Positions 6,014 to 45,349 of a stretch of 45,349 nucleotides of DNA are shown here, in pieces (within the stretch, counting starts at the first letter, position 1; each line of letters starts with the position of its first letter). The notes below the pieces were generated by a model. It had not been told where the DNA came from, made no database searches, and worked only from the letters and a program-made list of their open reading frames with translations. Source of the stretch: Escherichia coli (GTDB lineage: Bacteria > Pseudomonadota > Gammaproteobacteria > Enterobacterales > Enterobacteriaceae). The stretch is taken from the NCBI RefSeq assembly GCF_003334405.1, contig NZ_QOWM01000023.1; one strand, written 5' to 3'. The position numbers and the translations under genes were made by a program.

Positions 6014-6028
6014 AAAGAGAATTCTGAT

Positions 6029-6322
6029 TTAAAAGAAGAAGAAAATCAGCCCGACAATGAGAACAATATCGGCAAGCAATGGGCAAAAAATCCCTTGCCA
6101 AAGAACCTTCTGCGGACGAAAGCCCACGCCGTGAATCACACCAGCACAGACGGCCCACATCAGCAATAAACCATGCCAGATTTCCAGTTCACTGGTCTTC
6201 GCGGCAAAACGAGATGGGTCCCAAAACATACATCCTGCTAACAGAAGCGCCATCACGAAGGAAAGCGCCCGCAGGGGGCGCTTGTCCATTACCGCATACA
6301 AAGTCGCGATAATCTTACTCAT
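6029..6322 (-). CDS. ybgE: Small inner-membrane protein YbgE (cyd operon)
   Basis: 97 aa, hydrophobic, MSKIIATLYAVMDKRPLRALSFVMALLLAGCMFW. Confidence 0.9.
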   Translation of the reverse strand: MSKIIATLYAVMDKRPLRALSFVMALLLAGCMFWDPSRFAAKTSELEIWHGLLLMWAVCAGVIHGVGFRPQKVLWQGIFCPLLADIVLIVGLIFFFF

Positions 6323-6435
6323 CAGATGTCTTCTTGACCGGCTTTGCCTGATTCGACGTGTTCAAGCGCCAGCGCGGTGATTACCCCAAACGAACAGGCA
6401 AGAAGCGTTCCCAGAATCCATGCGAAATACCACAT
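6322..6435 (-). CDS. cydX: Cytochrome bd-I oxidase accessory subunit CydX (37 aa)
   Basis: Hand translation of the minus strand gives MWYFAWILGTLLACSFGVITALALEHVESGKAGQEDI followed by TGA. Absent from the ORF track because it is under 60 aa. Its stop overlaps the ybgE start, and it starts 11 bp after the cydB stop. Confidence 0.9.
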   Translation of the reverse strand: MWYFAWILGTLLACSFGVITALALEHVESGKAGQEDI

Positions 6436-6449
6436 TTTTAGCTCCTTAC

Positions 6450-7589: not shown

Positions 7590-7604
7590 TTGACGACTCC
7601 TGTC

Positions 7605-9173
7605 TTAGCGTGCCGGCTGAGTAGTCGTGGAAGACTGCTCAAAGTGATAGCGACCGGTTTTCAGGCTGCTTGGGCCGAGGCGTGCAAACTTGAACATTAA
7701 GAACAATTCTGCCACCAGGAACAGGGTATACAGGCCGCAAATCAGCACCATTGAGAAGATGAGATCGCCTGCGGTCAGTGACGAGTTCGCCACAGCTGTC
7801 GGCAGCACTTCACCGATAGCCCACGGTTGGCGGCCATATTCAGCCACGAACCAGCCCGCTTCTACAGCAATCCACGGCAGCGGAATACCGTACAGCGCGG
7901 CGCGCAGAAGCCATTTTTTCTCGCCAATGCGGTTGCGGATGACACTCCAGAAAGAGAGCGCGATGATTGCCAGAAGCAGGAAGCCACACGCCACCATGAT
8001 ACGGAACGCAAAGTACAGCGGCGCTACACGCGGGATGGAGTCTTTGGTTGCCTGTTGAATCTGCGCTTCAGTCGCATCAGCCACGTTTGGCGTATAGCGT
8101 TTCAGCAGCAGACCGTAACCGAGGTCTTTCTTCATGCTATTGAACTGGTCACGAACCGCCTGGTCGGTAGAACCAGAACGCAGTTGTTCGAGCAGAGAGT
8201 ACGCCTTCATCCCGTTACGAATGCGTTCTTCATGCTGCACCATCAGCTCTTTCAGGCCGATAACCGGGGTATCCACGGAACGCGTTGCAATGATGCCCAG
8301 TGCGTAAGGGATCTGAATCGCAAATTTGTTCGTCTCCTCTTCCTGATCAGGAATGCCGAACAGAGTAAAGGCAGCAGGCGCAGGTTGCGTTTCCCACTCG
8401 GCTTCAATAGCAGCCAGTTTGGTTTTCTGCACGTCGCCCATTTCGTAGCCGGATTCATCACCCAGAACAATAACAGACAGAACAGCAGCCATACCGAAGC
8501 TGGCAGCGATAGCAAAGGAGCGTTTAGCGAAGGCGAAGTCACGACCTTTCAGCATATACCATGCGCTGATACCGAGGATGAACATCGCGCCAGTCACATA
8601 ACCAGACGCTACAGTGTGAACGAATTTCACCTGAGCAACCGGGTTAAGCACCAGCTCGGAGAAGCTCACCATCTCCATACGCATAGTTTCAAAGTTGAAA
8701 TCGGACGCGATTGGGTTTTGCATCCAGCCGTTCGCAACCAGAATCCACAGTGCGGACAGGTTTGAACCGAGCGCCACCAGCCAGGTGACACACATATGCT
8801 GAACTTTACCCAGACGATCCCAACCGAAGAAGAACAGACCTACAAAGGTGGATTCGAGGAAGAAGGCCATCAGACCTTCGATTGCCAGCGGCGCACCGAA
8901 GATATCCCCTACATAGTGGGAATAGTAAGACCAGTTAGTCCCGAACTGGAACTCCATGGTCAGACCGGTAGCCACACCCAGAGCGAAGTTGATACCAAAC
9001 AACTTGCCCCAGAACTTGGTCATATCTTTATAAATCTGTTTGCCGGAGAGGACGTAGACCGTTTCCATAATGGCCAGCAGGAACGCCATACCGAGCGTCA
9101 GTGGCACAAAAAGGAAGTGGTACATCGCGGTCAAGGCAAACTGTAAGCGCGACAGTTCGACTATATCTAACAT
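7605..9173 (-). CDS. cydA: Cytochrome bd-I ubiquinol oxidase subunit I
   Basis: 522 aa from [31 protein letters not shown], including the Q-loop. The ORF-track start at 9176 is one Met upstream. Confidence 0.96.
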
Positions 9174-9455
9174 CATGACTCCTTGCTCATCGCATGAAGA
9201 CTCCGAGAGTGAACCCCGTTAGAAAGGGTCACACGCATGCCCCAATAGAAATTTGTTTGAACACTTTCATCATACCATGTGAATGCACACAAAAACGGCG
9301 TAAAGAAAGGTTGCAAACATGTTAATAAAAACTCAAATTGATCCCACGTATATATTACGCCGCAAAATCCTTACAATAAACAGGTTTTTGTTGAAGCAAA
9401 TTTGCATTTTTCGACGGTGATCAATTTATAGCTAAATCACCGCCTTTCAGCCAAT

Positions 9456-9521
9456 TTGATCGAGAACAATTTATCTCTTTTTGATGCCCATTTCCAAGGC
9501 TTATACATTGATAAATATCAA
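9456..9521. promoter_or_regulatory. cydAB upstream control region with FNR-type palindromes
   Basis: TTGATAAATATCAA (9508-9521) matches the FNR consensus TTGAT-N4-ATCAA exactly. A second near-site, TTGATCGAGAACAA, lies at 9456-9469. Both are about 280-350 bp upstream of the cydA start in an AT-rich 846-bp leader. Confidence 0.45.
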
Positions 9522-10019
9522 TTCCTACAAATTATGTTAATCATGTTTCAATAAGGTAACTTTAGTGACATTTATGTTTAAAATGTGTGAGTTATAAGGC
9601 TGAAATTAGTTTCGGTTGGCAATTAAAGATAAAAAGAGACGAAGCAAAAACAGCACGGTTGACCTTAATTCTTTTTTTGGTCACTGGCTAATACGACGCA
9701 GAGTTTCAGGATTACTAATAAAGGCATAAATCCACCCCGCCAATATTAACATTTAGTTAACTTATAATTATATTATAATTAACTCACCCAGGGTTATTAT
9801 TTTGTTAAAAATAAAGCCACATATACGTGGCTTGAGAGTGAAGATAAACGCAAAATTACCTGATGCGCTACGCTTGCCAGTGTCTACATCATCTCTGCAA
9901 TATATTGAATTTGCCTGCTTTTGTAGACCGAATAAAGCGTTCATGCCGTATCCGGCATGAACAAAGCGCCCTTTGTCAACAATCTGGCCGCGCATATGTG
10001 GCTTCGGTTTGATTGCTAT

Positions 10020-12653
10020 TCAGGCAAGCCGGTAACTGAACGTCCGTGACTGGCCGGGTAAAAAAGGCCCCGATAGATTTGAACCTTGATTTTCCTCGGT
10101 GGTAATGTGTTCATCCATCATCGTTTCTGAGCAAGAAATCACCTCGCGACTGAAAGCAACAGTCGCATCACAGGTTGCTGATTCAGCCGGATTAAACAGC
10201 CGTAAAATCACTTCTTGTCGGTCTTCAGCTTTCTTAAGTGCGCTTATCAGGCATCCCACTGGGGGCATTTTCAACAAACTATAACTTTCCGGCACGTTGA
10301 ATCCGGCTTTGTTGAGCTTCATCACATCCCATGGGATTTTGTTGTAACACTGTACTGGAGTCAGCCATGCTCGCGCCTGCTGAGCTACACCAGCGGCGGT
10401 TGGCGTACCGGTATAACTCAATAAACTTAGGCGACAAGAAAGCAGACCACGTAGTTGTGAGTCCGGGACTGGCATTTTAATTCCCGAAGGCCGCCCAGGC
10501 CTTAAAAGCAGATCTTCTTTGCCCAGTAAGCCCACGCCACGCAGCAACGTAATGGCAAAGGTTTTCTTCTCTTCACCGATGACTTCAAATTCACGTAACC
10601 CTTCGCTAAAGACAGCCATGCCGTTACGCCCTTCCTGTAAGGCAACATAGTTGAGCATATTCCATACCGGAACCGGCGCTTCTTTCCAGCCTTCTTGCTG
10701 CCAGTTGTTCATTGCACTGTCGTTCACGGGGCGCGTTAGCGAACCAAACTGCGTATCTGCCAGAACACTGTCGGTGTTAAAAGGTGTAGGGACCAGGACA
10801 CGAAGGCGATGATCGTCAGCCTGGTTATCAAGATTGATATCCACATCAATACGCCTGCTGTTATGACTAAGAGTGACAACCAACACCACCCCTACTCTGC
10901 CAGTGGATTGCCGGGCGCTGCGTTCTGACAAATTGAGCGGCACTGCCATGTCATAGCGGATAACAGCCCTGCTCTGCCAGGCTTCATGAATAATATCGCA
11001 TTGCGGTTTCGCGTTCGCTGCGGTAATTACCCACTCTTCTTTTGCGGGTGAATAGTCATATTCATCACCATCATCAGAGCTTTCTTCAATTTGCAATACC
11101 CGGTCATAGCGCACACCGCTGTCTTTATCTACCAGTTGCAGAGAACCATCCTCATTGAGCGCAATTTGCCAGAAAGCATTTTCCAGTATCCCTTCAGCGT
11201 CACTTTTTGCCGCAATTACGTTGCCAGGCTGATTCGCTTCGATATAAAGCGTGCGATAGCCCATAGAAGGGACAATCTGGTTGATCTGTATATCAAACTC
11301 CATAAAGGGATCATAATTACCGTAATGAACTATTTGCCGATCGATTAGGCCTGGATCGATCTCACGGGCATGGCGAATAAAATACGGTACAGGCTGACCG
11401 CGATCGTCCCGCAAATTAAACTGGCTGGCGCGCAGCCGCACAGTGGTGTTGATAACTTCTTCACGCGGCCAGGGCATCAGGTTAAACAGGACGAGTTTGT
11501 CGGCGTCGCTCTGCGGCATGTTGTCGGCAATTTTGCGCATGTAGAAACGAATCAGATTATCCGCCATGTCTTCAGCCAGTTCGAAGCGGGCGACGATTTC
11601 GCGATGAACTTTGTCACTACAGCAGCAGCCGATACTGTCGTGGGCATGATTTTTTAAGATCTCTTTCCACATTTTCTCCAGCAAGCCGTGGTGGTATTCA
11701 AAACCCAACGTCCAGGCCAGTGTTGCCAGCGGTTCCAGCAGATTAACAATCTTATTTTCAATACGCGCGTGGGCAATTTTGATATCCATACGCGTAGAAC
11801 CGATGGTGCGATGCACGCGCATATATTTGCCATCAATAAATTCCCCTTTCAGGGTTGCCAGATTATCTCGCTGCGCTTCGATCTTCTCAAATACCTCTTC
11901 AAAGCGGCTCATCACAAACTTACGTTGAGGGTAGATCTCACGTAGCTTATCCATCACTTCGAAGATATTTTGCTGCAATGGCATCTGGTCATGCCCATTC
12001 GGCAGCAAAATCTCTTTGGTTACAGACGCTTTTTCCAGCACGTCAAAATAACTGTCGAGGCGTTTACGTAATCCGTTTTCGTCGGCAGGTAAGTACTTAC
12101 CGATGGCGTAGCCCAGCGGCAGCACCTGCGCCGTCACTTCGCTACCGTCACTGCTTTGCCACAAAAACTCGGTTTTATCAGTACCGTGGCGCTCCGAACA
12201 TCCGCGCCAGAACATGGTGCGGGTAATGCCAAATCCATTGTAGATATGCGGCAGTTGCCCGGACATGCCAAAGGAATCTGGTAAATAACCTATTTTCATC
12301 GGCTCGCCAAACGCGAGGCAGTCACGCATTCCGTACATCAGATTACGGACGATGGATTCCGCAGAAACAATCGTGGTATCGGTCTGGGTATACCAGGGGC
12401 CGATAATCAACTTGCCGGCTTCTACCTGTTTCTTCACACGGTCTTTGTTTTCCGGTTTCACCGCGAAATAATCTTCGAGGATCGCCGTTTGCCCGTCGAG
12501 TACGTAATATTTGTATTCGTTGTCCTGTTCCAGTCGGCACAGGATCTCTTCCATATTATTGACCAGCAGAATACGTGACTCTTCGGTGGTGAAATACCAC
12601 TCTCGATCCCAGTGCATATGCGGGGTGATGTGAACGCGAGATACTGCTTTCAT
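10020..12653 (-). CDS. mngB: Mannosylglycerate hydrolase (GH38 alpha-mannosidase)
   Basis: 877 aa, [30 protein letters not shown] (GH38 N-terminal motif); immediately downstream of mngA. Confidence 0.93.
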
Positions 12654-12670
12654 CGTCGTTTCCTTTTTGT

Positions 12671-14647
12671 TTATGGCATTACGCCATCAGTCAGATAGTT
12701 GCCATGCTTAACCGCGTGACGCCGCCACATCAGGAGAATTGCAGTCGAGATTGCAGCCCCCACCAATGCCGCGCCAAACCAGCCAATTGCCGCCATAACA
12801 CCGCCCGCGCCATTATCATGAAGTAAAAAGAGCGAGAAAATGCCGGCACCGGGTGTCGAAAGGCCGATATTCATCGCACCGACAATAGCGCCCGTTACCA
12901 TAGAGCCCAGCACAAACGAACCAATAACCCGCAGCGGATCTTCAATCGCCATCGGGATCGCCCCTTCGGTAATACCTGCCAGCCCTAACAGCCAGGTGGA
13001 TTTCCCGGTCTCAATTTCAAACTCTTTAAACAGGCGCGGTGCGAGCATCGTGGAAGCGGTTACGGTAAATGCCGAAACCATTTTGACGGAGGCGAAAATG
13101 GCATACGGGCCGTAAACGCCGTTCGCCATTGCGCCCAGGCAGAATGCATAAGCGGCTTTATTCACTGGCCCTCCAAGGTCAAAGGAACACATAAAACCGA
13201 GAATGGCACCCAGCAACAGCGCGTTACTTCCTGACAGACCGTTCAGCCAGGCGGTAAGCGAGTTATTGATCCAGGCGACAGGTTCCCCCACCACAAACAG
13301 CATCAGACTGCCCGCTCCCAACGTACCGAGCACCGGGTAGAGATAAAAAGTCAGGAATCCATTGAATTTACTGCTAAGACGCAAGTGATTTTTCACCCAG
13401 CGCATCAAGTAACCGGCTATCAATCCGCCAACGACCGCGCCGAGAAACCCGGAGCCGATCATGTTGGCGGCAAGTCCAGCCGCAAAGCCTGGCGCTAACG
13501 CCGGTTTATCTGCCAGAGAATAGGCGGTATAGGCCGCGAGCACCGGTACCATCAAAATTCCGAGCAGCCCGCCGCCCAGCTTGCGGTACATCCACAGCCA
13601 GGAGTTTTCTTCATTAAACAGATCTTGTAGCCCGAAGATTTGCGACAGTAATACCGCGACCGCCAGCACCGTGCCCCCCGCGACAATCAACGGTACGGCA
13701 AAAGAGATTCCGCTCAACAGTGCCTGTTTCAGCTCCGTTTTGACACTTTTCACCGGTTGCGTATCTTGCTGTACGGTACGCGTCTCATCGCTACGCTTGA
13801 GGGTAAGCGCTTGTTGGATCAACGCTTCTGCATGGCGAATCGGCTCGGCAACAGGCACTGAAAGCGCGGGAATGCCATTAAAACGCTCACTCTCCTTGAT
13901 GGCGACTTCAGCCGCAAAAATACAGGCGGTTGCACTATTGAGTTGATCCGCCGTTAAACGCCCTTCAATGCCGTTAGCGCCTTGTTTTTCAACGTAAACA
14001 TTTACGCCGAGTTTGCGTCCGGCTTTTTCCAGATATTCCGCAGCCATATAGGTGTGAGCAATACCCGCCGGACAGGCCGTTACGCAGACGATAGTTGGCG
14101 CGTTGGAAAAAGAGGCAGAAGGTTGCGTGCCTCCCTTGTCATCCAGCGCCGAGAGCAACTCATCAGGCGTCGTCGCCGACTGTATACGCGCCCGAATCTC
14201 ATCATCCGCAAGGCGCGTGGTCAGCGCTGTCAGCAGTTGCATATGCGTAGTACCCGCTTCATTGGGGGGAATCGCCAGCAGCACCACTAAATCAACTGCT
14301 TCCGGGCCATCAACGCCTTCCCACTGAAGCGGCTCGCTGAGTGTGGCGACCGCAAACGCCGCTTCTTTTACCGCAGCAGTTTTGCCATGCGGCACAGCCA
14401 ACCCTTCACCTAAGGCGGTCGGGCCAAGGCTTTCACGGCGATACACTTCTTCCAGAAATTGCTCAGTACTGGAAATTTTCCCCAGAGCAGCAAGACGTTG
14501 AGTCAACGCGTGGATGGCCTCTTCACGGCTGGTAAAGCGCGCATTCAGACACAACGCATCGCGGTGGGTCAGAGTCGTCAGATTCATCATGATCCTCACT
14601 TGATCGTTTTTATAGTCGCGCCAGTGTGCCCGATAAAACAATACCAT
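12671..14647 (-). CDS. mngA: PTS 2-O-alpha-mannosyl-D-glycerate-specific EIIABC component
   Basis: 658 aa with PTS EIIA(Fru)-like, EIIB and polytopic EIIC regions; fits the mngR/mngA/mngB context. Confidence 0.92.
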
Positions 14648-17699: not shown

Positions 17700-17960
17700 C
17701 CCGTAGGCCTGATAAGACACGTTAAACGTCACATCAGGCATCGCTTGTCGGATGCGGCGCTTGCGCCTTATCCGACCTACATTGGTGGTCCCCGTAGGCC
17801 TGATAAGACACGTTAACCGTCACATCAGGCATCGCTTGTCGGATGCGGCGCTAGCGCCTTATCCGACCTACATTGGTGGTCCCGTAGGCCTGATAAGACG
17901 CGTCAGCGTCGCATCAGGCTTCAATTGCCGGAGAAGGCGATAATGCCTTATCCGGTCTAC
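17700..17960. repeat. Tandem array of three ~90-bp BIME/REP units in the sucB-sucC intergenic region
   Basis: Units at 17700-17790 and 17791-17880 are near-identical (two substitutions and one indel by eye). A third, more diverged unit lies at 17881-17960. Each unit holds two REP-type palindromes (GCCTGATAAGAC...GTCACATCAGGC and GTCGGATGCGGCGC..GCGCCTTATCCGAC). Confidence 0.85.
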
Positions 17961-22195: not shown

Positions 22196-22316
22196 GCCTG
22201 ATGCGCTGCGCTTATCAGGCCTACGGGTAATGACTTGTAGGCCGGATAAGGCGTTCACGCCGCATCCGGCACTGGTTGCCTGATGCGACGCTTGCGCGTC
22301 TTATCAGGCCTACGGT
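22196..22316. repeat. REP (BIME) palindromic units in the sdhB-sucA intergenic region
   Basis: Three REP-type palindromes: GCCTGATGCGCTGCGCTTATCAGGCCTAC, GTAGGCCGGATAAGGCGTTCACGCCGCATCCGGC, GCCTGATGCGACGCTTGCGCGTCTTATCAGGCCTAC. They abut the sdhB stop codon. Confidence 0.85.
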
Positions 22317-26253: not shown

Positions 26254-27537
26254 ATGGCTGATACAAAAGCAAAACTCACCCTCAACGGGGATACAGCTGT
26301 TGAACTGGATGTGCTGAAAGGCACGCTGGGTCAAGATGTTATTGATATCCGTACTCTCGGTTCAAAAGGTGTGTTCACCTTTGACCCAGGCTTCACTTCA
26401 ACCGCATCCTGCGAATCTAAAATTACTTTTATTGATGGTGATGAAGGTATTTTGCTGCACCGCGGTTTCCCGATCGATCAGCTGGCGACCGATTCTAACT
26501 ACCTGGAAGTTTGTTACATCCTGCTGAATGGTGAAAAACCGACTCAGGAACAGTATGACGAATTTAAAACTACGGTGACCCGTCATACCATGATCCACGA
26601 GCAGATTACCCGTCTGTTCCATGCTTTCCGTCGCGACTCGCATCCAATGGCAGTCATGTGTGGTATTACCGGCGCGCTGGCGGCGTTCTATCACGACTCG
26701 CTGGATGTTAACAATCCTCGTCACCGTGAAATTGCCGCGTTCCGCCTGCTGTCGAAAATGCCGACCATGGCCGCGATGTGTTACAAGTATTCCATTGGTC
26801 AGCCATTTGTTTACCCGCGCAACGATCTCTCCTACGCCGGTAACTTCCTGAATATGATGTTCTCCACGCCGTGCGAACCGTATGAAGTTAATCCGATTCT
26901 GGAACGTGCTATGGACCGTATTCTGATCCTGCACGCTGACCATGAACAGAACGCCTCTACCTCCACCGTGCGTACCGCTGGCTCTTCGGGTGCGAACCCG
27001 TTTGCCTGTATCGCAGCAGGTATTGCTTCACTGTGGGGACCTGCGCACGGCGGTGCTAACGAAGCGGCGCTGAAAATGCTGGAAGAAATCAGCTCCGTTA
27101 AACACATTCCGGAATTTGTTCGTCGTGCGAAAGACAAAAATGATTCTTTCCGCCTGATGGGCTTCGGTCACCGCGTGTACAAAAATTACGACCCGCGCGC
27201 CACCGTAATGCGTGAAACCTGCCATGAAGTGCTGAAAGAGCTGGGCACGAAGGATGACCTGCTGGAAGTGGCTATGGAGCTGGAAAACATCGCGCTGAAC
27301 GACCCGTACTTTATCGAGAAGAAACTGTACCCGAACGTCGATTTCTACTCTGGTATCATCCTGAAAGCGATGGGTATTCCGTCTTCCATGTTCACCGTCA
27401 TTTTCGCAATGGCACGTACCGTTGGCTGGATCGCCCACTGGAGCGAAATGCACAGTGACGGTATGAAGATTGCCCGTCCGCGTCAGCTGTATACAGGATA
27501 TGAAAAACGCGACTTTAAAAGCGATATCAAGCGTTAA
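26254..27537 (+). CDS. gltA: Citrate synthase (type II)
   Basis: 427 aa, [78 protein letters not shown]. Confidence 0.97.
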
Positions 27538-27565
27538 TGGTTGATTGCTAAGTTGTAAATATTTT

Positions 27566-27598
27566 AACCCGCCGTTCATATGGCGGGTTGATTTTTAT
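27566..27598 (+). terminator. Rho-independent terminator of gltA
   Basis: AACCCGCCGTTCATATGGCGGGTT hairpin followed by a T-run, 29 bp after the gltA stop. Confidence 0.7.
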
Positions 27599-27926
27599 AT
27601 GCCTAAACACAAAAAATTGTAAAAATAAAATCCATTAACAGACCTATATAGATATTTAAAAAGAATAGAACAGCTCAAATTATCAGCAACCCAATACTTT
27701 CAATTAAAAACTTCATGGTAGTCGCATTTATAACCCTATGAAAATGACGTCTATCTATACCCCCCTATATTTTATTCATCATACAACAAATTCATGATAC
27801 CAATACTTTAGTTTTGCATTTAATAAAACTAACAATATTTTTAAGCAAAACTAAAAACTAGCAATAATCAAATACGATATTCTGGCGTAGCTATACCCCT
27901 ATTCTATATCCTTAAAGGACTCTGTT

Positions 27927-28493
27927 ATGTTTAAAGGACAAAAAACATTGGCCGCACTGGCCGTATCTCTGCTGTTCACTGCACCTGTTTATGCTGCTGA
28001 TGAAGGTTCTGGCGAAATTCACTTTAAGGGGGAGGTTATTGAAGCACCTTGTGAAATTCATCCAGAAGATATTGATAAAAACATAGATCTTGGACAAGTC
28101 ACGACAACCCATATAAACCGGGAGCATCATAGCAATAAAGTGGCCGTCGACATTCGCTTGATCAACTGTGATCTGCCTGCTTCTGACAACGGTAGCGGAA
28201 TGCCGGTATCCAAAGTTGGCGTAACCTTCGATAGCACGGCTAAGACAACTGGTGCTACGCCTTTGTTGAGCAACACCAGTGCAGGCGAAGCAACTGGGGT
28301 CGGTGTACGACTGATGGACAAAAATGACGGTAACATCGTATTAGGTTCAGCCGCGCCAGATCTTGACCTGGATGCAAGCTCATCAGAACAGACGCTGAAC
28401 TTTTTCGCCTGGATGGAACAAATTGATAATGCAGTCGATGTCACGGCAGGTGAAGTAACCGCTAACGCAACCTACGTGCTGGATTATAAATAA
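27927..28493 (+). CDS. ybgD: Fimbrial major subunit-like protein YbgD
   Basis: 188 aa with signal peptide MFKGQKTLAALAVSLLFTAPVYA, a Cys pair and C-terminal beta-strand motif typical of chaperone-usher pilins. First gene of the cluster, downstream of a 389-bp AT-rich region. Confidence 0.9.
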   Translation: MFKGQKTLAALAVSLLFTAPVYAADEGSGEIHFKGEVIEAPCEIHPEDIDKNIDLGQVTTTHINREHHSNKVAVDIRLINCDLPASDNGSGMPVSKVGVTFDSTAKTTGATPLLSNTSAGEATGVGVRLMDKNDGNIVLGSAAPDLDLDASSSEQTLNFFAWMEQIDNAVDVTAGEVTANATYVLDYK

Positions 28494-28552
28494 GTATTAT
28501 TTTGGCGGCATCATCGCCGCCTTTCATAAAATATTTATCAGGTATGGACACC

Positions 28553-31000
28553 GTGAATATTTATCGACTCTCTTTTGTATCCTGCCTGGTCATGGCGATG
28601 CCTTGCGCAATGGCGGTCGAATTCAATCTGAATGTTCTCGATAAATCAATGCGCGACCGCATTGATATTTCATTATTAAAGGAAAAAGGAGTCATTGCTC
28701 CCGGTGAATATTTTGTTAGCGTTGCGGTGAATAACAACAAAATCAGTAATGGGCAAAAAATTAACTGGCAAAAAAAGGGTGACAAAACCATTCCATGCAT
28801 CAATGATTCACTGGTCGATAAATTTGGTTTAAAACCAGATATCCGTCAGTCCTTGCCACAGATAGATCGGTGTATTGATTTCAGTTCCCGACCTGAAATG
28901 CTCTTCAATTTCGATCAAGCCAATCAGCAACTGAATATTAGTATTCCGCAAGCCTGGCTGGCGTGGCACTCAGAAAACTGGGCTCCCCCCTCTACATGGA
29001 AAGAAGGTGTTGCCGGTGTCCTGATGGATTACAACTTGTTTGCCAGCAGCTACCGCCCACAGGACGGCAGCAGCAGCACTAACCTGAATGCCTACGGTAC
29101 CGCCGGAATTAACGCCGGGGCATGGCGCTTACGCAGTGATTACCAGCTTAATAAGACCGATAGCGAAGATAACCATGACCAGTCAGGCGGAATATCGCGC
29201 ACCTATCTTTTTCGTCCATTACCGCAATTAGGCTCTAAGTTAACCCTCGGCGAAACCGATTTCAGTTCCAATATTTTCGATGGTTTTTCTTATACCGGCG
29301 CGGCACTGGCGAGTGACGATCGAATGTTACCGTGGGAGCTGCGTGGCTACGCCCCACAAATTAGCGGTATTGCACAGACCAATGCCACGGTGACGATCAG
29401 TCAATCAGGCCGCGTCATTTACCAGAAAAAAGTCCCGCCAGGCCCGTTTATTATTGATGACCTCAATCAGTCTGTTCAGGGCACGCTGGATGTCAAAGTG
29501 ACGGAAGAAGATGGTCGGGTGAACAATTTCCAGGTTTCGGCAGCATCGACGCCCTTCCTGACTCGCCAGGGACAGGTTCGCTATAAATTGGCCGCGGGTC
29601 AGCCACGGCCTTCCATGTCACATCAAACTGAAAATGAAACCTTTTTTAGCAATGAAGTTTCCTGGGGGATGCTCTCAAACACCTCGCTGTACGGCGGCCT
29701 GCTGATTTCTGATGATGACTACCATTCTGCCGCAATGGGTATCGGGCAAAATATGCTGTGGCTTGGCGCACTGTCCTTTGATGTCACCTGGGCCAGTAGC
29801 CATTTTGATACTCAGCAGGACGAGCGGGGCTTAAGCTACCGTTTTAATTACAGCAAACAAGTGGATGCCACCAACAGCACGATTTCGCTCGCCGCTTATC
29901 GCTTCTCAGATCGTCATTTTCACAGCTACGCCAACTATCTGGATCACAAATACAACGACAGCGATGCGCAGGACGAAAAACAGACGATCAGCTTATCCGT
30001 GGGCCAACCGATTACCCCACTAAACCTCAATCTTTACGCCAACCTGCTACATCAAACCTGGTGGAATGCAGACGCCTCCACGACCGCCAACATCACAGCA
30101 GGTTTTAATGTTGATATTGGTGACTGGAGAGATATCTCGATTTCGACGTCATTCAATACGACCCACTACGAAGATAAAGATCGCGACAACCAGATTTATC
30201 TGTCGATTTCGCTCCCCTTCGGTAACGGTGGTCGGGTTGGCTATGACATGCAAAACAGTAGCCACAGCACCATACACCGCATGTCGTGGAACGATACGCT
30301 GGATGAACGTAATAGCTGGGGCATGTCTGCCGGACTGCAATCCGATCGTCCGGACAATGGAGCCCAGGTGAGCGGTAACTATCAGCACCTGAGTTCAGCG
30401 GGTGAGTGGGATATTTCTGGTACCTATGCCGCCAGTGATTACAGTTCCGTCAGCAGCAGCTGGAGCGGTTCTTTCACCGCAACCCAATATGGTGCAGCAT
30501 TTCATCGCCGCAGCTCCACCAATGAACCACGCCTGATGGTCAGCACCGATGGCGTGGCAGATATTCCGGTTCAGGGCAATCTCGACTACACCAACCATTT
30601 TGGCATTGCGGTGGTGCCGTTGATTTCCAGTTACCAGCCTTCCACCGTGGCGGTGAACATGAATGACTTACCCGACGGCGTAACAGTTGCAGAAAACGTC
30701 ATCAAGGAAACATGGATTGAAGGCGCGATAGGTTACAAATCACTGGCTTCCCGTTCCGGTAAAGACGTTAACGTCATCATACGCAACGCCAGCGGTCAGT
30801 TCCCTCCCCTCGGTGCGGATATCCGCCAGGATGACAGCGGCATTAGCGTGGGTATGGTTGGCGAGGAAGGACATGCCTGGTTAAGCGGTGTCGCTGAAAA
30901 TCAACTGTTTACCGTGGTCTGGGGTGAGCAAAGCTGCATTATTCATCTGCCAGAACGTCTGGAAGACACGACCAAACGCCTGATTTTACCTTGTCATTAA
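28553..31000 (+). CDS. ybgQ: Fimbrial outer-membrane usher YbgQ
   Basis: About 815 aa PapC/FimD-type usher. Start taken at GTG 28553 to match the length I recall for K-12; in-frame ATGs at 28544 and 28502 are alternatives. Confidence 0.85.
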   Translation: MNIYRLSFVSCLVMAMPCAMAVEFNLNVLDKSMRDRIDISLLKEKGVIAPGEYFVSVAVNNNKISNGQKINWQKKGDKTIPCINDSLVDKFGLKPDIRQSLPQIDRCIDFSSRPEMLFNFDQANQQLNISIPQAWLAWHSENWAPPSTWKEGVAGVLMDYNLFASSYRPQDGSSSTNLNAYGTAGINAGAWRLRSDYQLNKTDSEDNHDQSGGISRTYLFRPLPQLGSKLTLGETDFSSNIFDGFSYTGAALASDDRMLPWELRGYAPQISGIAQTNATVTISQSGRVIYQKKVPPGPFIIDDLNQSVQGTLDVKVTEEDGRVNNFQVSAASTPFLTRQGQVRYKLAAGQPRPSMSHQTENETFFSNEVSWGMLSNTSLYGGLLISDDDYHSAAMGIGQNMLWLGALSFDVTWASSHFDTQQDERGLSYRFNYSKQVDATNSTISLAAYRFSDRHFHSYANYLDHKYNDSDAQDEKQTISLSVGQPITPLNLNLYANLLHQTWWNADASTTANITAGFNVDIGDWRDISISTSFNTTHYEDKDRDNQIYLSISLPFGNGGRVGYDMQNSSHSTIHRMSWNDTLDERNSWGMSAGLQSDRPDNGAQVSGNYQHLSSAGEWDISGTYAASDYSSVSSSWSGSFTATQYGAAFHRRSSTNEPRLMVSTDGVADIPVQGNLDYTNHFGIAVVPLISSYQPSTVAVNMNDLPDGVTVAENVIKETWIEGAIGYKSLASRSGKDVNVIIRNASGQFPPLGADIRQDDSGISVGMVGEEGHAWLSGVAENQLFTVVWGEQSCIIHLPERLEDTTKRLILPCH

Positions 31001-31014
31001 TTAAGGAAAAGAGA

Positions 31015-31743
31015 ATGACATTTATTAAAGGATTACCCTTAATGTTGTTAACCATCAGCTTGGGTTGCAATGCTGCGGTGCAACCCGATCGCACACGCAT
31101 TGTGTTTAACGCCAATGACAAAGCCACCAGCCTGCGTATCGAAAACCAAAGTGACAAACTGCCTTATCTTGCTTATTCCTGGATAGAAAATGAAAAAGGG
31201 GAGAAAAGCGATGCTCTTCTGGTCGCTTTGCCCCCTATTCAACGTCTGGAACCGAAAGCGACATCGCAGGTGCGGGTTGTGAAACAAGCCTCAACCACAC
31301 AATTACCTGGCGATCGCGAAACGCTATTTTTCTACAATATGCGCGAAATTCCTCCCGCTCCGGATAAAAGCAGCGACCATGCGATACTTCAGGTCGCTAT
31401 TCAAAGTCGTATTAAATTGTTCTGGCGACCGGCTGCATTACGCAAGAAAGCAGGAGAAAAGGTCGAACTGCAGTTACAGGTCAGCCAGCAGGGCAACCAA
31501 CTGACACTGAAAAATCCTACCGCGTATTATCTGACCATTGCCTATCTGGGGAGAAATGAAAAAGGCGTTCTCCCAGGCTTCAAAACCGTGATGGTTGCAC
31601 CTTTTAGTACGGTCAACACAAACACCGGAAGTTATAGCGGCAGCCAGTTTTATCTCGGTTACATGGATGATTACGGCGCATTACGCATGACGACGCTCAA
31701 CTGCAGCGGACAATGCCGTTTACAAGCAGTGGAGGCGAAATGA
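31015..31743 (+). CDS. ybgP: Fimbrial periplasmic chaperone YbgP (PapD-like)
   Basis: 242 aa from [36 protein letters not shown]. The ORF track starts 8 codons earlier at 30991. Confidence 0.88.
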
Positions 31744-32801
31744 GTGCTGGCAAGGGATTGTTGCTCGTCATCTGCCTGTTATTTCTGCCGTTGAAGTCTG
31801 CAATGGCGCTGAACTGCTATTTTGGTACATCTGGTGGCGCAGTAGAAAAATCAGAAGCGATTCAACCGTTTGCTGTACCAGGCAATGCCAAACCCGGTGA
31901 TAAGATCTGGGAATCTGACGATATTAAAATTCCCGTCTATTGTGACAACAATACCAACGGCAACTTTGAAAGCGAGCATGTCTACGCCTGGGTAAACCCC
32001 TATCCGGGGGTGCAGGATCGTTATTATCAACTCGGCGTGACATACAACGGTGTCGATTACGATGCCAGTCTGGGAAAAAGTCGCATCGACACTAACCAGT
32101 GTATCGACAGTAAGAACATTGATATTTATACCCCTGAGCAGATCATCGCGATGGGATGGCAGAACAAAATTTGCTCGGGCGATCCCGCTAATATTCATAT
32201 GTCGCGTACCTTTCTCGCTCGCATGCGGTTATACGTCAAAATACGAGAAATGCCGCCGCATGATTATCAAAGTACGCTTAGCGACTATATCGTCGTGCAA
32301 TTTGACGGTGCCGGTAGCGTTAACGAAGACCCTACTGCCCAAAACCTGAAATATCATATTACTGGTCTGGAAAACATTCGCGTGCTGGATTGCAGCGTCA
32401 ATTTTTCCATTTCACCGGAAACACAGGTGATTGATTTTGGTAAATTTAATTTGCTGGATATACGTCGCCACACAATGTCGAAAACGTTCAGTATTAAAAC
32501 GACCAAGAGCCAAAACGATCAATGCACCGACGGATTTAAAGTCAGTTCCTCCTTTTATACCGAAGAAACGTTGGTTGAAGAAGATAAAGCATTGTTGATT
32601 GGTAATGGTCTGAAGCTACGTTTACTGGATGAAAACGCCTCGCCTTATACCTTCAATAAATATGCTGAATACGCCGATTTCACCAGTGACATGTTGGTCT
32701 ACGAAAAAACCTATACGGCTGAACTTTCGTCCATTCCAGGCACCCCCATCGAGGCTGGCCCCTTCGATACAGTGGTGCTTTTTAAGATTAACTATAACTG
32801 A
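31740..32801 (+). CDS. ybgO: Fimbrial adhesin-like protein YbgO
   Basis: 353 aa from [23 protein letters not shown] (signal peptide). Start overlaps the ybgP stop (ATGA). Last gene of the chaperone-usher operon, so a putative tip adhesin. Confidence 0.85.
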
Positions 32802-32952
32802 TTTACCATGATGCCCTTTGCCGCCGGAAAGGGCATCTCTTTCAGAAAATTGCTGATTTTCCCCTTTTCCTTGATTGCTGTTATTTTTTCCTGGCCCAGC
32901 TTTCTTTATGCTGTATCGATACACCAAAGAGAAAATAATGAGGGAGCGAAGG

Positions 32953-33999
32953 ATGCCAGTTTTGCAGTGGGGAATGTTATGTGTGCTATCACTTCTCCTT
33001 TCTATTGGTTTCCTCGCGGTACATCTCCCGGCGGCGCTATTACTTGGGCCGATGATCGCCGGGATCATCTTTAGTATGCGCGGAATTACTCTGCAACTTC
33101 CCCGCTCTGCTTTTCTCGCCGCCCAGGCCATTCTTGGCTGCATGATTGCGCAAAACCTCACTGGTTCGATTCTCACCACCCTGGCCGTCAACTGGCCGAT
33201 CGTGCTTGCAATTTTACTGGTAACGCTGCTTTCCAGCGCCATTGTGGGTTGGTTATTGGTGCGCTATAGCTCATTGCCTGGAAATACCGGTGCCTGGGGC
33301 TCCTCTCCTGGCGGCGCGGCGGCAATGGTCGCTATGGCGCAAGATTACGGCGCAGATATTCGCCTGGTGGCGTTTATGCAATATCTGCGAGTGCTGTTCG
33401 TCGCGGGGGCCGCTGTTCTGGTCACCCGCATGATGCTGGGCGATAACGCTGAAGCGGTTAACCAGCATATCGTCTGGTTCCCGCCAGTGAGCATTAATCT
33501 CCTGCTTACTATTTTGCTCGCGGTCGTTGCCGGTACAGTGGGATGCCTGCTGCGTCTTCCTTCCGGCACGATGCTCATCCCGATGCTGGCGGGCGCAGTG
33601 CTCCAGTCTGGTCAGCTCATCACCATCGAACTACCGGAATGGCTGCTGGCGATGGCGTATATGGCAATTGGCTGGCGGATTGGTCTTGGTTTCGATAAAC
33701 AAATCTTACTGCGGGCACTACGCCCGCTACCGCAAATCCTGCTGTCGATTTTTGCTCTGCTGGCTATTTGTGCGGGTATGGCGTGGGGGCTGACCCGGTT
33801 TATGCACATTGATTTTATGACTGCCTACCTCGCCACCAGCCCCGGCGGGCTTGATACCGTGGCGGTCATCGCCGCAGGGAGCAATGCCGATATGGCGCTC
33901 ATTATGGCGATGCAAACCCTACGCCTGTTCAGTATTTTGCTGACAGGGCCTGCCATTGCGCGGTTTATTTCAACCTATGCGCCGAAGCGGTCGGCCTAG
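32953..33999 (+). CDS. abrB: AbrB-family putative membrane transporter (regulator of aidB expression)
   Basis: 348 aa polytopic membrane protein from [26 protein letters not shown]. The ORF track extends 26 codons upstream to 32875. Confidence 0.85.
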
Positions 34000-39662: not shown

Positions 39663-39770
39663 GCCTGATGCGACGCTTGACGCGTCTTATCAGGCCTACG
39701 TATTTCCTGCAATTTATTGAATTTGCACAAATTTGTAGGCTGGATAAGGCGTTCACGCCGCATCCGGCAT
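39663..39770. repeat. REP (BIME) palindromic units between dtpD and phr
   Basis: GCCTGATGCGACGCTTGACGCGTCTTATCAGGCCTAC and the inverted GTAGGCTGGATAAGGCGTTCACGCCGCATCCGGC, separated by an AT-rich spacer. Confidence 0.85.
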
Positions 39771-41868: not shown

Positions 41869-42630
41869 CTATTCAAACGTGAAATCAATAAGCTCATCAG
41901 GGACATCGCAAACAATATGAAGACGGGTTTCTTCTCTGCCGTGACTCTTTTCACTAATTGCGTAACTGTCATGCTTGGGATTATTTAATTCTTTCAGCGG
42001 AAATTTTTCCTCGAAGGCTTTATTTAGCCGCCCCTGGTTTCCTTTTACAGCGAATAAATAATCACCTCCCTGTTTTTGTATCTTCTCTGCAATATCTTTC
42101 TGGCAACCCATCGCATCAGTTGTGATGATTTTTCCTTTAATATCCAGCATGTTAAGAAGTTCTGGGATAGCTGTAATCTCATTAGATTTCTCATCCGTCT
42201 TGATCTGTCCGATGACCAGACTGTGCATTGTTGAGAACGCACTAATGACATGAATCGCTCCCCTGCGGCGACTCTTGTCATAAGAGTGCCGGAGCGTTTT
42301 TCCATCAATTGCAATGACGTCTTTATCATCTGAAGAATGGCAGTCACGCATCCAGTTAATAAAGCACTCGTGAAATTTTGCAGGACTGATACAGGATACA
42401 ACTCTGGCAATGGTATCGTGAACAGGAATACCATTTTCAAAATCACCATATTGCTTCAAAAAATCGGGATGTGTTTCCCCAAAATCCTCTATATCTTCCC
42501 AGCCTTCTGCACCAGAAATAACGGCACAAATAGTCAACAGTAGAATATCCGATAACTTATGTTCCATTTTCCAGGCTTGTCTGTAATCGGGGATAATAGA
42601 AATATGTCCCATCAATTTTTTAAGTTCCAT
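41869..42630 (-). mobile_element. ybfD: H-repeat-associated ISAs1-family transposase, N-terminal 253-aa fragment
   Basis: 253-aa [24 protein letters not shown]...[24 protein letters not shown]. Paralogous to the adjacent copy and ends where a full-length ISAs1 transposase would continue, so C-terminally truncated. Confidence 0.85.
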
Positions 42631-42869
42631 TTTGTTCTCCTTAATTATGTAAGGAGTATTTGATCATGTGTAAGCAATAAAAAACAGCTTTAGGTAATAA
42701 GGAATATCTCAATTTTTAAACATAAAATGCGAATTGTTTAGTACAAAAAGTGAACTTCTGATGATCTTTCCCTGTGTTTAACGCAGCCTTCTTTCTTTTC
42801 CTCTTCACCCTTAATGTCTTTGCAATCTCTTAATAAATTCAGTGCCATCTTCTTTATTCCAGATATTAT

Positions 42870-43860
42870 TTAGGCTGCGTTTCCTCTTCTTATCCGGCTG
42901 GCATCTTCATTCATTTTTACATCTAACACCCAATGAAGACTGTGCTCGATCAGCCAGTGCGCTCTGATAGCATGTGCAAATTCTTTAGCATCCATATCCT
43001 TTGATGAAATATAATATCGGATGCTTACACCTTCTGCTGATTTATCTTCTTTCTTCTGCCTGAATGACAATGCTACACAAAGCTTTTTTAATCCCTTCCA
43101 TTCGAATTCAAAATCACAAAAGTTCAGGCGTTACGTTACTGACAATATGCAAACGTGTTTCTTTTCTTCCATGACTTATCTCCTGCGTACTAAACGAATC
43201 GCCTTTATAATTAGAAAACACATTTACAGGAAATTTTTCCTCGAATGCATGATGTAATTTCCCCTGATTGCCTTTTACTGCCAGAAGATAATCTGCTTTT
43301 TTATCTTTGATCTTCGAAGCGATATCTTTCTGACAGCCCATAGCATCAATGGTTATCAAATTTTTCTTTAAATACAGTAGGTTAAGCAACTCTGGAATGG
43401 CTGTAATCTCATTACTTTTGGCTTCCGTTTTCACCTGCCCCAGTACAACACCATTTTCGTTCGAGAATGCACTCACCATATGGATTGCTCCTTTTCTTTT
43501 TCCCTTATCAAAGGAGCCTCTTATGGTCTTTCCATCTATTGCTATAATTTCACCATCAGTGATTTCATGGCACTCCTGCATCCATTCAATAAACATCTTT
43601 TCAAAGGCCAAACTGTCAATGTTACTCACAACGCGTGCAATGGTGTCATCGACCGGAATGCCATTATCAAAATCACCATATTTCTTTAGCCATTCAAGTC
43701 TTTCATGTCCAAAATCTTCAATTTCCTGCCACTCATCGGCACCTGCAATTACTGCACATACGGTGAGAAACAAAATAGCAGATAATTTATGTTTAACCTT
43801 TCCTTGTTGTCGTATATCAGGGGTCACTGAAATATAATCAAGCAAACTTTGAATACTCAC
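42870..43860 (-). pseudogene. ybfL: Frameshifted, C-terminally truncated ISAs1-family (H-repeat) transposase
   Basis: The N-terminal part (43114-43860, 248 aa, MSIQSLLDYISVTPDIRQQGK...) stops at 43114. The continuation (...[65 protein letters not shown]) lies in another frame at 42870-43070 and ends short of the family's usual C-terminus. Confidence 0.8.
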
Positions 43861-44041
43861 CTGGCGTCCTTTTTTATCTTTTTAGTTATTCCAAAGGTTA
43901 AATTTTGATCACCTGTAGGCGTTAAAGCAAAGATGAAAATCGTGATTTACATCACAATTTTCATGATCTTGCCCTGCCCCGTCCCTTGCTCTCATGTCTT
44001 TCTGTATGTATTTTATATTTTTCTCTTTCTGGTGTTGTTCA

Positions 44042-44500
44042 TTATGACCATTTACCAATCCAGTCAAAAACTTCATTTTTCAAATTGTTATCATAATAAT
44101 CAACATCATAATAGTCTCCATAATTAATTATTTTATAACTAGCCTTCTTGTTTTTATCACTAAAATACACCCGTTGTTTTGTAGCGCAGAACTCCATATT
44201 CTCCAGTTTACTAATGTTTTTTAATCGCACGCTATAAAGAATATCATTGAAAAAATTAAGATTTATATCAACCACTCCACAGTGCGTCCTGTAATTATTA
44301 ACCATTATACTTATAAAATGACCATTCCCTCTACTAATTTTTTGGTCATTAATTATTTTATAAATAATATTTTTTTCAGAAAGATATATCTCAACGCTCT
44401 TTGGTGTTTTATGTCCATAAAATACGATGTCAGAATTTGAATTGTTATCAAACCCAAGGTAAACAACAAATAAACAAAGGGTAATTAAAAAAAATGACAA
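44042..44500 (-). CDS. Candidate Rhs-tip immunity protein (AT-rich ORF with N-terminal hydrophobic segment)
   Basis: 152-codon ORF beginning 8 bp after the Rhs-tip stop, with an apparent TTG start (the ORF-track 'M'). Strongly AT-rich with Asn/Ile/Lys/Tyr-rich composition and MSFFLITLCLFVVYLGF at the N-terminus. May correspond to K-12 ybfC; start codon uncertain. Confidence 0.6.
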   Translation of the reverse strand: MSFFLITLCLFVVYLGFDNNSNSDIVFYGHKTPKSVEIYLSEKNIIYKIINDQKISRGNGHFISIMVNNYRTHCGVVDINLNFFNDILYSVRLKNISKLENMEFCATKQRVYFSDKNKKASYKIINYGDYYDVDYYDNNLKNEVFDWIGKWS

Positions 44501-44508
44501 GTTTGCCT

Positions 44509-45349
44509 CTAATAATTTGAAGCATCTGAACTCCCTTGCTTTGCTTTTATTGGATTATCTGCTTTTATACCATCTAACCCGAAGAGTTGCCCAGTGTTAT
44601 ATTTTTCAATACATGCATCGCTACATTTGGCAGAAAAATCGCCACAAGCAATACCGACAGTGTTATTTTTAAGATCCATGATTCTTTCTTTAGCTGGCTG
44701 ACCTTGTCTATCCCCTGCCGCCTCATGATTTTTACCTATCACGTCAGCTATTGTTGATCCAAATGTCTTAGTCATTCGACACATCAAGTAACAATGTCTC
44801 ATTGCATCGGCGGCCCCATTATGAGCTCCGCCAACAATAGCATCCATATCATAACCGAACTGGTAAGCACTGTTAGTAATGCTGTTTGCAGCAATCAATC
44901 CAGGTACACCAGATACGGCATAAATTAGTCCACCTGATGTCATATTCTCAATCGCATCTAACCCCATTGGGTCTATCACTTGTATGGGATTCAACGGATA
45001 CTGATACATATTCCATCCACCTCTCAACCCAATCGGGTCCGGGGTGATATACCGCCCCTGCAACGGATCGTAGTGCCGGTGACGGTTATAGTACAGCCCC
45101 GACTCCTCATCATGCTGCTGCCCTGGCAGACGGTACGGCTGGTGCAGGTGATGCGGGTTCTCCTCATTAAGCTGGTTGCCCCATTCATCATACTCCCCGC
45201 GCCACGCCGTATTGCCGTCTTCGCTGATGAGCGCCAGCGGCAGGCCCCGGTGGTCGCAGTGGTAAAAATGAACTTTTCGCGCCGGTGTGTATTCCGGCTC
45301 CACCTGTCTGGCCAGTTGCTCCACCGTCAGCCCGCACTGCGCAAGCCAC
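44509..45349 (-). CDS. Rhs-family protein C-terminal region (partial; 5' end beyond the window): end of Rhs core plus variable toxin-like tip
   Basis: Reading frame is open to the window edge (...[37 protein letters not shown]...). It contains the core-terminal motif [27 protein letters not shown] (PxxxxDPxGL), then about 149 aa of unrelated AT-rich sequence to the stop at 44509. The ORF-track 'M' at 45324 is an internal GTG. May be K-12 ybfO. Confidence 0.8.

Follow-up and report, generated by a model that had tools for sequence, protein, structure and literature searches.

What does a fimbrial operon that is silent in the laboratory offer the bacterium that carries it? In the 45,349-nt stretch of Escherichia coli DNA analysed here (contig NZ_QOWM01000023.1, hereafter the window), the genes ybgD, ybgQ, ybgP and ybgO follow gltA, and they could encode a working fibre held in check, a phase-variable one, export machinery in reserve or a relic on its way to being lost. 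The region 27538–32801 runs exactly from the first base past gltA through the ybgO stop codon (Table 1), with coordinates taken from an ORF listing and from the RefSeq annotation of a 100%-identical genome. The gene junctions comprise a 50-nt gap between ybgD and ybgQ, a 14-nt gap between ybgQ and ybgP and a 4-nt overlap (ATGA) of ybgP with ybgO, so that an earlier note on this DNA, which had described four co-directional fimbrial genes with tight or overlapping junctions behind a 389-bp AT-rich intergenic region and the gltA terminator, is matched to the base. Pfam, NCBIfam and PDB searches back the identities of all four genes, and their family and domain matches agree with the pilin, usher, chaperone and adhesin roles that the same note had assigned. 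Taken together, the evidence set out below makes it very probable that this is an intact, minimal four-gene operon for a Pap-like (π) fimbria, and that it is normally kept silent by H-NS coating an AT-rich control region. Earlier publications already cover the operon, the class to which it belongs, its silence, the spacer with its bound H-NS and the candidate promoter, and the adhesin domain has already been crystallised.

Table 1. Features of the gltA–ybg region, in window coordinates
Feature	Position	Strand	Basis and remarks
gltA	26254–27537	+	ORF listing and RefSeq annotation; stop at 27537
AT-rich gltA–ybgD spacer, operon regulatory region	27538–27926	+	389 bp, G+C 0.293; published promoter island, H-NS-bound
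gltA intrinsic terminator	27564–27591	+	Terminator scan; 12-pair hairpin followed by T run
Sigma-70 promoter-like site TAAACA-16-TAAAAT	27604–27631	+	Consensus scan; ~296 nt 5' of ybgD ATG
ybgD, major pilin, 188 aa	27927–28493	+	ORF listing and RefSeq annotation
GC hairpin GGCGGC-ATCATC-GCCGCC, ybgD–ybgQ gap	28504–28521	+	Fold -16 kcal/mol, z -3.1
ybgQ, outer-membrane usher, 818 aa	28544–31000	+	ORF listing and RefSeq annotation
ybgP, periplasmic PapD-like chaperone, 242 aa	31015–31743	+	ORF listing and RefSeq annotation
ybgO, two-domain tip adhesin, 353 aa	31740–32801	+	ORF listing and RefSeq annotation
Terminator-like hairpin, 10-pair stem GAUGCCCUUU/AAAGGGCAUC	32810–32837	+	Sequence and fold; 9 nt past ybgO stop, weak T tail

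The class of the operon is most readily read from its assembly proteins. YbgQ possesses the N-terminal domain, β-barrel with plug and C-terminal domain of an usher (Pfam PapC_N at residues 26–165, 2e-34; Usher at 183–733, 6e-189; PapC_C at 746–801, 3e-11) and matches PapC over its full length. PapC is also the closest solved usher (1.7e-155, 522 bits), far ahead of the more distant FimD (5e-80, 267–273 bits), whilst the best NCBIfam model is StdB; by score, YbgQ thus belongs to the π clade of Nuccio and Baumler. YbgP has the two domains of a periplasmic chaperone (Pfam PapD_N and PapD_C), with PapD as its closest solved relative (3e-51), and in alignment it keeps PapD residues Arg8 (within DRTR) and Lys112 (within IKLF). 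Judged by these scores rather than by a tree, and in line with the listing of ybgDQPO as π class (PMC3032704 Table 5), the operon is a member of the Pap-like chaperone–usher class.

Comparison with known systems shows how little else the operon carries. The P (Pap) pili of uropathogenic E. coli, also of the π clade, supply the closest solved usher and chaperone and share with Ybg a two-domain tip adhesin (PapG and YbgO, respectively) and a stem–loop after the major pilin gene, but pap has eleven genes to the four of ybg, which lacks the PapE/F/K/H adaptor, terminator and minor tip subunits as well as the papI/papB regulators and the GATC switch. The same four-gene order of pilin, usher, chaperone and adhesin is found in ygiL-yqiGHI (Yqi, or ExPEC adhesin I) and related π operons of Enterobacteriaceae, and in one study the ybg genes were automatically annotated as ygiL/yqiG; ygiL-yqiGHI lies, however, at a chromosomal site other than the gltA–abrB interval that houses ybg in Escherichia. 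Among curated families the best NCBIfam matches are to Salmonella Std, Ste and Stf proteins (StdB for the usher; SteC, StfD and StdC for the chaperone), but these are relatives and not orthologues, since the scores fall far below the equivalog cut-offs (642 versus 1289 bits, for example), and ybg has no regulator genes of the stdE/F type. Type 1 fimbriae (fim) share the chaperone–usher mechanism and an upstream H-NS-bound promoter island, and fimA resembles ybgD in its conserved termini, hypervariable centre and discrete allele classes; fim is nevertheless of the γ1 clade, with an invertible fimS element and the FimB/FimE recombinases, whereas ybg has no such switch. At 45–50% G+C against 50.5% for the whole window, the ybg genes offer only a weak case for recent transfer argued from foreign base composition.

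The two structural subunits are equally recognisable. YbgD has the features of a major pilin: a signal peptide, an N-terminal donor strand in which hydrophobic residues alternate, a variable centre and a conserved C-terminal strand with a penultimate Tyr (...VYA/ADEGSGEIHFKGEVIEAPC..., ending ...TYVLDYK), both termini being kept in an alignment across allele classes. It matches NCBIfam fimbrial major-subunit models and, in the PDB, FimA and PapA, and near-identical relatives in its cluster carry a precomputed PF00419 assignment. YbgO consists of a signal peptide (residues 1–23), a receptor-binding domain (~24–217; nt 31809–32390) and a pilin domain (~218–353), and is built as a two-domain tip adhesin in which the N-terminal domain binds receptor and the C-terminal pilin domain lacks a donor strand. 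Crystal structures of residues 24–217/222 have been deposited (9RWW, 9RX0), and the prediction of a YbgO structure in search of a lectin domain is superseded by them; our literature search found no publication for PDB entries 9RX0, 9RWW, 9RWU, 9RWV or 9RWE. Nor did it find a published receptor for YbgO, in agreement with the earlier note, which had described the receptor as not known. At the sequence level no similarity to PapG is detectable in the receptor-binding domain, and the remaining adhesin-family homologues in E. coli share only ~37% identity with YbgO (P0107). The nearest homologues outside Escherichia (60–63% amino acid identity) lie beside ribB, ubiK, hldE and glnE, a neighbourhood that we take to be the yqi locus on the K-12 map.

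Once the operon is transcribed, YbgD and YbgO would be exported by the Sec pathway, and YbgP, acting by donor-strand complementation, would catch both in the periplasm and hand them to the YbgQ usher. YbgO would enter the usher first and end at the tip, since its receptor-binding domain replaces the donor strand, and donor-strand exchange would then add YbgD subunits beneath it as a growing polymer; we infer this order, tip before shaft, from the domain make-up of the two proteins. A different use for the export machinery has been hypothesised for S. flexneri, which has a disrupted fimD but retains ybgQ and ybgP (PMC6854044): YbgQ and YbgP might export the subunits of other fimbrial operons that have a defective usher or chaperone of their own, with no Ybg fibre being made. 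However, ybgD and ybgO are constrained to the same degree as ybgQ and ybgP and co-vary with them in allele classes, which fits a self-contained system. Usher–subunit specificity is, moreover, usually high in the Pap and Fim systems, and we regard service as reserve machinery as very improbable.

Two hairpins may shape the transcript of the operon. The stem of the hairpin between ybgD and ybgQ is constant and its loop variable in all E. coli alleles, and the homologous operons of Salmonella and Enterobacter have hairpins of other sequence at the same place. The element is likely to be a partial terminator or an mRNA stabiliser that sets the ratio of pilin to machinery, and it probably holds pilin mRNA above that of the usher and chaperone. 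It would fall within ybgQ if the longer reading frame from TTG 28502 were used, but that frame was dropped in favour of the RefSeq start, ATG 28544, which leads into a hydrophobic stretch read here as a putative signal peptide. The second hairpin, just beyond ybgO, was missed by the consensus scan because T fills only 4 of 8 positions in its tail; its form suggests that it may serve as the terminator of the operon. A search of the spacer and operon returned no Rfam RNA element at gathering thresholds.

Control of the operon presumably resides in the gltA–ybgD spacer. Set against a G+C of 0.505 for the whole window, the spacer falls in the lowest 0.75% of windows of its length: only 338 of 44,961 are equally AT-rich, and these are confined to two spots, the spacer itself and a second near 43.7–44.2 kb. 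Low G+C (0.26–0.33) is found in all allele classes despite an identity of only 45–75%. Three of the nine promoter-like matches that the consensus scan found in 5.7 kb fall inside it, and with at least 300 bp of markedly AT-rich DNA and several overlapping promoter-like sites the spacer has the make-up of a promoter island, as which it is indeed catalogued (751980_413; PMC3661553 Table 1). At its left, the gltA terminator marks the edge of the variable block, its stem (CCCGCC/GGCGGG) and T run being kept in all six aligned allele classes. The sole well-conserved block of the spacer, at 27598–27630, is where the predicted promoter sits, and genomic SELEX identified the same hexamers as a constitutive RpoD promoter of ybgD, flagged HNS (PMC3946193). 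SELEX and consensus prediction thus suggest that this is the promoter actually used.

That the spacer would be an H-NS target, as the earlier note had proposed from its base composition, is borne out by the H-NS code 'A' given to the island, meaning bound in all compiled ChIP studies (PMC3661553), and by the HNS flag of the SELEX survey. The description of the operon as cryptic in K-12 likewise holds, ybg being among seven operons poorly expressed in the laboratory that were tested by forced expression (Korea et al. 2010, as cited in PMC5797941, PMC6805351 and PMC3559732). According to secondary citations of that study, six of the seven proved functional, the non-functional one was not ybg, and ybg was credited with greater adherence to bladder cells. 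H-NS repression is stated in the literature for elf, sfm, yad and yeh, and our literature search found no source in which loss of hns derepresses ybg itself. Overproduction of SlyA raised four other cryptic operons, ybg not being among those named, whilst overexpression of BolA induced ybgD, and expression of the operon was higher in HUS-associated STEC isolates. We therefore propose that the operon is normally silenced at its AT-rich, H-NS-coated control region and that this silencing may be relieved by factors such as BolA.

Many fimbriae are phase-variable, and with a Pap-like usher and chaperone ybg might be expected to be so too, either by the Dam methylation/Lrp/PapI–PapB route of Pap or by an invertible promoter as in type 1 fimbriae, rather than simply silenced. 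A Pap-type switch would call for two GATC sites and papI/papB-like genes, yet no GATC occurs anywhere between 27433 and 28085, spacer included, and the 389-bp spacer holds no ORF of at least 60 aa and therefore no papI/papB-like or recombinase gene. For a fim-type inversion the locus has no recombinase gene and only AT-only inverted repeats of 11 nt, short enough to be expected by chance. One such pair, 27556–27566 and 28527–28537, brackets the divergent block of spacer and ybgD; we attribute it to coincidence in DNA so rich in A and T, and as a switch it would make no functional sense. The sequence of the locus thus largely refutes phase variation by either route, which we consider extremely improbable. 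With no dedicated regulator, Dam/GATC switch or invertible element, control of the silenced operon must rest on global factors.

Is the silent operon simply decaying? A relic would be permanently silent, without a role in nature and in the course of being lost, its intact frames reflecting too little time, and signs of loss are readily found. A ybgD match is absent in ~23% of 5,426 genomes, and in 1,271 genomes coverage of the 5.5-kb region stays below 80%; all that B2/APEC strains retain of the operon is a 396-nt 3' stump of ybgO, the O157 usher is a pseudogene with an internal stop and S. flexneri ybgO carries a pseudogene annotation. Laboratory cultures leave the operon silent, and one study saw MG1655 grow better once it was deleted (PMC8174762). 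Absence or truncation in about a quarter of genomes, together with the O157 usher pseudogene, shows that the operon is dispensable. All four genes are, however, intact in this window and in the majority of sampled genomes, and across alleles their dN/dS is 0.02–0.13, at dS of 0.2 to more than 2, where unconstrained sequence would give about 1; the genes are thus constrained and evolve under purifying selection. The receptor-binding domain of YbgO is the most constrained part (97–98% amino acid identity at dS 0.28–0.40). Retention of the ribosome-binding site, promoter block and intercistronic hairpin argues for maintained expression signals, and the adhesion on forced expression and the raised expression in HUS-associated isolates cited above also speak against a relic. 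On balance we think decay an unlikely explanation, and favour an intact operon that is silenced.

How such an operon is maintained may be reflected in its alleles. Across the 5,426 genomes the spacer and ybgD are of K-12 type in 930 and only 60–80% identical to it in 3,264, with none between and 1,232 without a match. Control region and ybgD together form K-12, common and O157 types, with 72–79% protein identity and saturated synonymous sites. Discrete old alleles combined with a near-invariant receptor domain are what would be expected of an expressed fibre that is seen by host immunity or phages and binds one conserved receptor. Our tentative suggestion, which we would put at well short of even, is that diversifying or balancing selection has long acted on this cryptic locus in nature; as part of the same tentative reading, the spacer–ybgD classes may have been shuffled by recombination against the remainder of the operon, with the YbgO receptor-binding domain staying near-invariant.

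These observations bear on a wider puzzle, the retention of a dozen silent fimbriae by E. coli. With control regions only 45–75% identical, the allele classes are possibly regulated differently, so the silence seen in K-12 may be unrepresentative, and work confined to the K-12 allele could overlook allele-specific regulation. Old, discrete alleles of pilin and control region, a receptor domain under strong constraint and the clean loss of the operon from B2 strains together provide a testable argument that the ybg fimbria is used in nature.

A sequence search found many complete E. coli genomes that match the 5.5 kb around the ybg operon at 100% identity, and the RefSeq annotation of one of these agrees with the ORF list of the window for the region. 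Every detail of the four-gene, co-directional layout with tight junctions described in the earlier note is borne out by both sources: gaps of 50 and 14 nt separate ybgD from ybgQ and ybgQ from ybgP, respectively, and ybgP and ybgO overlap by 4 nt. Beyond ybgO, the abrB ORF can be lengthened at its 5' end by 26 codons to a TTG (32875–33999, + strand), RefSeq placing the start at 32953.

Features of the ybg region and of compared loci (window coordinates unless a locus is named)
Feature	Locus	Coordinates	Strand	Length	Remarks
gltA	window	26254–27537	+	427 aa	ORF list, RefSeq
gltA terminator	window	27564–27591	+		12-pair hairpin with T run; terminator scan
ybgD	window	27927–28493	+	188 aa	ORF list, RefSeq
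GC hairpin GGCGGC-ATCATC-GCCGCC	window	28504–28521			between ybgD stop and ybgQ start; T-rich stretch follows
ybgQ	window	28544–31000	+	818 aa	ORF list, RefSeq
ybgP	window	31015–31743	+	242 aa	ORF list, RefSeq
ybgO	window	31740–32801	+	353 aa	ORF list, RefSeq
YbgO residues 24–222	window	31809–32405	+		domain with PDB structures 9RX0, 9RWW
10-pair hairpin	window	32810–32837			9 nt 3' of ybgO stop; weak T tail
abrB	window	32953–33999	+	348 aa	ORF list, RefSeq
ybgO 3' remnant	L002, APEC O1:K1:H7	6265–6660		396 nt	between gltA and abrB
TRAP-transporter/UxaA-hydrolase/dehydrogenase block	L003, strain AVS0753	7182–14010			directly after gltA
O157 ybg allele	L004, strain ATCC 43894	2127–7392			whole operon

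Pfam, NCBIfam, PDB and fold searches likewise support the pilin, usher, chaperone and adhesin identities. YbgQ has the full usher architecture in Pfam (PapC_N, Usher at 6e-189 and PapC_C) and, in a PDB sequence search, matches solved PapC over its full length (1.7e-155) and FimD much more weakly (5e-80). YbgP comprises PapD_N and PapD_C domains (Pfam) and aligns with PapD at 3e-51, keeping Arg8 and Lys112, the two residues of the PapD cleft to which the C-terminus of the subunit is anchored. For YbgD, NCBIfam and PDB searches gave models of fimbrial major subunits and FimA/PapA, respectively; the protein possesses a signal peptide, an alternating-hydrophobic N-terminal strand and the usual C-terminal strand with its penultimate tyrosine. 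The ranking of the YbgQ and YbgP matches is consistent with the listing of ybgDQPO under the pi clade in a published table (PMC3032704).

For YbgO, the Pfam Fimbrial domain match is confined to the C-terminal third and no NCBIfam family was matched. An AlphaFold2 model built with 29 homologues (pLDDT 88, pTM 0.79) shows two beta-rich domains, and its top Foldseek matches are the two-domain tip adhesins CupB6, LpfD, CsuE, FimH, PapG and CfaE. The isolated domain of a near-identical YbgO (residues 24–217/222) has been solved in crystal structures 9RWW and 9RX0, and more distant relatives are found in 9RWU/9RWV and 9RWE (PDB sequence search); our literature search found no accompanying paper. Most likely, assembly would be of the standard Pap-like chaperone-usher type, with YbgD forming the fibre and YbgO at its tip.

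The spacer between gltA and ybgD is exactly the 389 bp claimed and lies, as proposed, behind a gltA terminator; its G+C is 0.293, against 0.505 for the window. Equally AT-rich 389-bp windows make up only 0.75% of all and lie in two places, the spacer itself and a second locus close to 44 kb. Other strongly AT-rich stretches are 43690–44777 (minimum 389-bp G+C 0.262, exceeding the ybg spacer in AT-richness), 9182–9966 (0.308) and 42328–43061 (0.329). The AT-rich sdhC–gltA spacer holds a 35-aa hypothetical protein (RefSeq WP_001305582.1; 25941–26048, +), conserved across all loci compared. Away from ybg, Rfam matches lie at 5–77 (-), 1004–1142 (-), 17706–17868 (-), 22240–22310 (+) and 39692–39734 (-); they comprise one tRNA, the thermometer of CpoB/ybgF, three REP-type elements (naRNA4) and the ES036 sRNA.

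The ybg spacer contains no Rfam match, no ORF of at least 60 aa wholly inside it (ORF list), no GATC site and no long inverted repeats, and there is no adjacent recombinase or papI/papB-like gene. The sequence thus excludes both a Pap-type and a fim-type phase switch. The proposal that the spacer is an H-NS target agrees with published data: in K-12, ybgD/gltA (751980, 413 bp) is a promoter island with H-NS code 'A', that is, bound in every compiled ChIP study, and three of five predictors flag it as horizontally acquired (PMC3661553, Table 1). A constitutive RpoD promoter of ybgD, TAAACA-16-TAAAAT, carries an HNS flag (PMC3946193), and our consensus-scan match at 27604–27631 is exactly this promoter. 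Across six allele classes only three parts of the spacer are conserved, namely the gltA terminator, a block at 27598–27630 with the predicted promoter, and the ribosome-binding site TAAAGGAC; the rest shows 45–75% identity between classes, yet a G+C of 26–33% in each. Transcripts of ybgD increase when BolA is overproduced (PMC4337573). In summaries of Korea et al. 2010, repression by H-NS is ascribed to elf, sfm, yad and yeh; our literature search found no source showing that loss of hns derepresses ybg. The operon would most likely be silenced by H-NS at the AT-rich promoter island, without a dedicated switch.

Crypticity in K-12 also finds support, ybg being one of seven operons poorly expressed in the laboratory according to summaries of Korea et al. 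2010. By these accounts six of the seven are functional if constitutively driven, ybg being placed among the six by secondary citations only, and two papers cite the study for ybg promoting bladder or epithelial cell adherence. As far as the summaries report, the forced-expression test named in the earlier note has thus in essence been done.

The hairpin between ybgD and ybgQ folds at -16 kcal/mol (z -3.1), and its stem is invariant and its loop variable across E. coli alleles, even the highly divergent one of O157. In the homologous Salmonella and Enterobacter operons the equivalent position after the pilin gene is likewise occupied by a hairpin, of different sequence. Stem-loops are present after papA and fimA and, by analogy, the ybg hairpin may raise the ratio of pilin to machinery message. 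The hairpin beyond ybgO is a plausible operon terminator.

A sensitive search of 5,426 complete E. coli genomes with spacer plus ybgD (27600–28493) gave a bimodal distribution of identity to the window: at least 95% in 930 genomes, 80–95% in none and 60–80% in 3,264, with no match in 1,232. The minority class is the K-12 type. The protein sequences of the three YbgD classes sampled (K-12, common and O157 types) differ by 21–28%; conservation covers the signal peptide, donor strand and C-terminal strand, and the centre is variable. In sliding-window comparison, divergence sets in abruptly just past the gltA stop codon and continues as far as the ybgO–abrB spacer; it is raised in the 5' part of abrB beside the ybg block, and in O157 it fades gradually into abrB. 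Strain KL53 combines a ybgD of another class (74.5% DNA and 78% protein identity to the window) with ybgP, ybgO and abrB that are 99.7–100% identical, and the locus is therefore a recombinational mosaic. A perfect 11-nt inverted repeat (TAAATATTTTA, 27556–27566; TAAAATATTTA, 28527–28537) almost exactly brackets the divergent spacer–ybgD block; being AT-only, it is probably a chance match.

At least 80% of the 5.5-kb region is carried by 4,155 of the 5,426 genomes. In B2/APEC strains, all that is left of ybg between gltA and abrB is a 396-nt 3' stump of ybgO, and in at least one strain a TRAP-transporter/UxaA island adjoins gltA in place of ybg. The O157 whole-operon allele is 77.5% identical to K-12, and its usher, annotated as a pseudogene, has an internal stop. 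Outside Escherichia, the YbgO homologues nearest in sequence (60–63% aa identity; L009 3165–8062 and L010 3179–8074) lie in the same pilin-usher-chaperone-adhesin order and adjoin ribB/ubiK/hldE/glnE, not gltA, a neighbourhood that we take to be that of the yqi locus on the K-12 map. Ybg has been described as core-associated, yet not intact in many strains, and as found mainly in commensal and diarrhoeagenic strains (Wurpel et al. 2013).

Synonymous divergence is saturated in ybgD (dS 1.2–1.7 in every comparison) and across the whole O157 operon against the window (1.6–2.2). Flanking dS is low (gltA 0.04–0.11, nei 0.03–0.10; both 0.06–0.11 in O157 strain ATCC 43894). dN/dS is 0.09–0.13 for ybgD and 0.02–0.06 for ybgO, and the YbgO receptor-binding domain keeps 97–98% protein identity despite a dS of 0.28–0.40. 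For ybgP, a high density of variants was also recorded, independently, in a 2025 study of STEC. The feature is real and the earlier interpretation of it is supported, at a locus previously known, annotated and partly characterised; the discrete ancient spacer–pilin allele classes, the strong receptor-domain constraint and the conserved intercistronic hairpin are only mildly new. The ybg genes are under purifying selection and are not decaying, though whole lineages can dispense with the operon.
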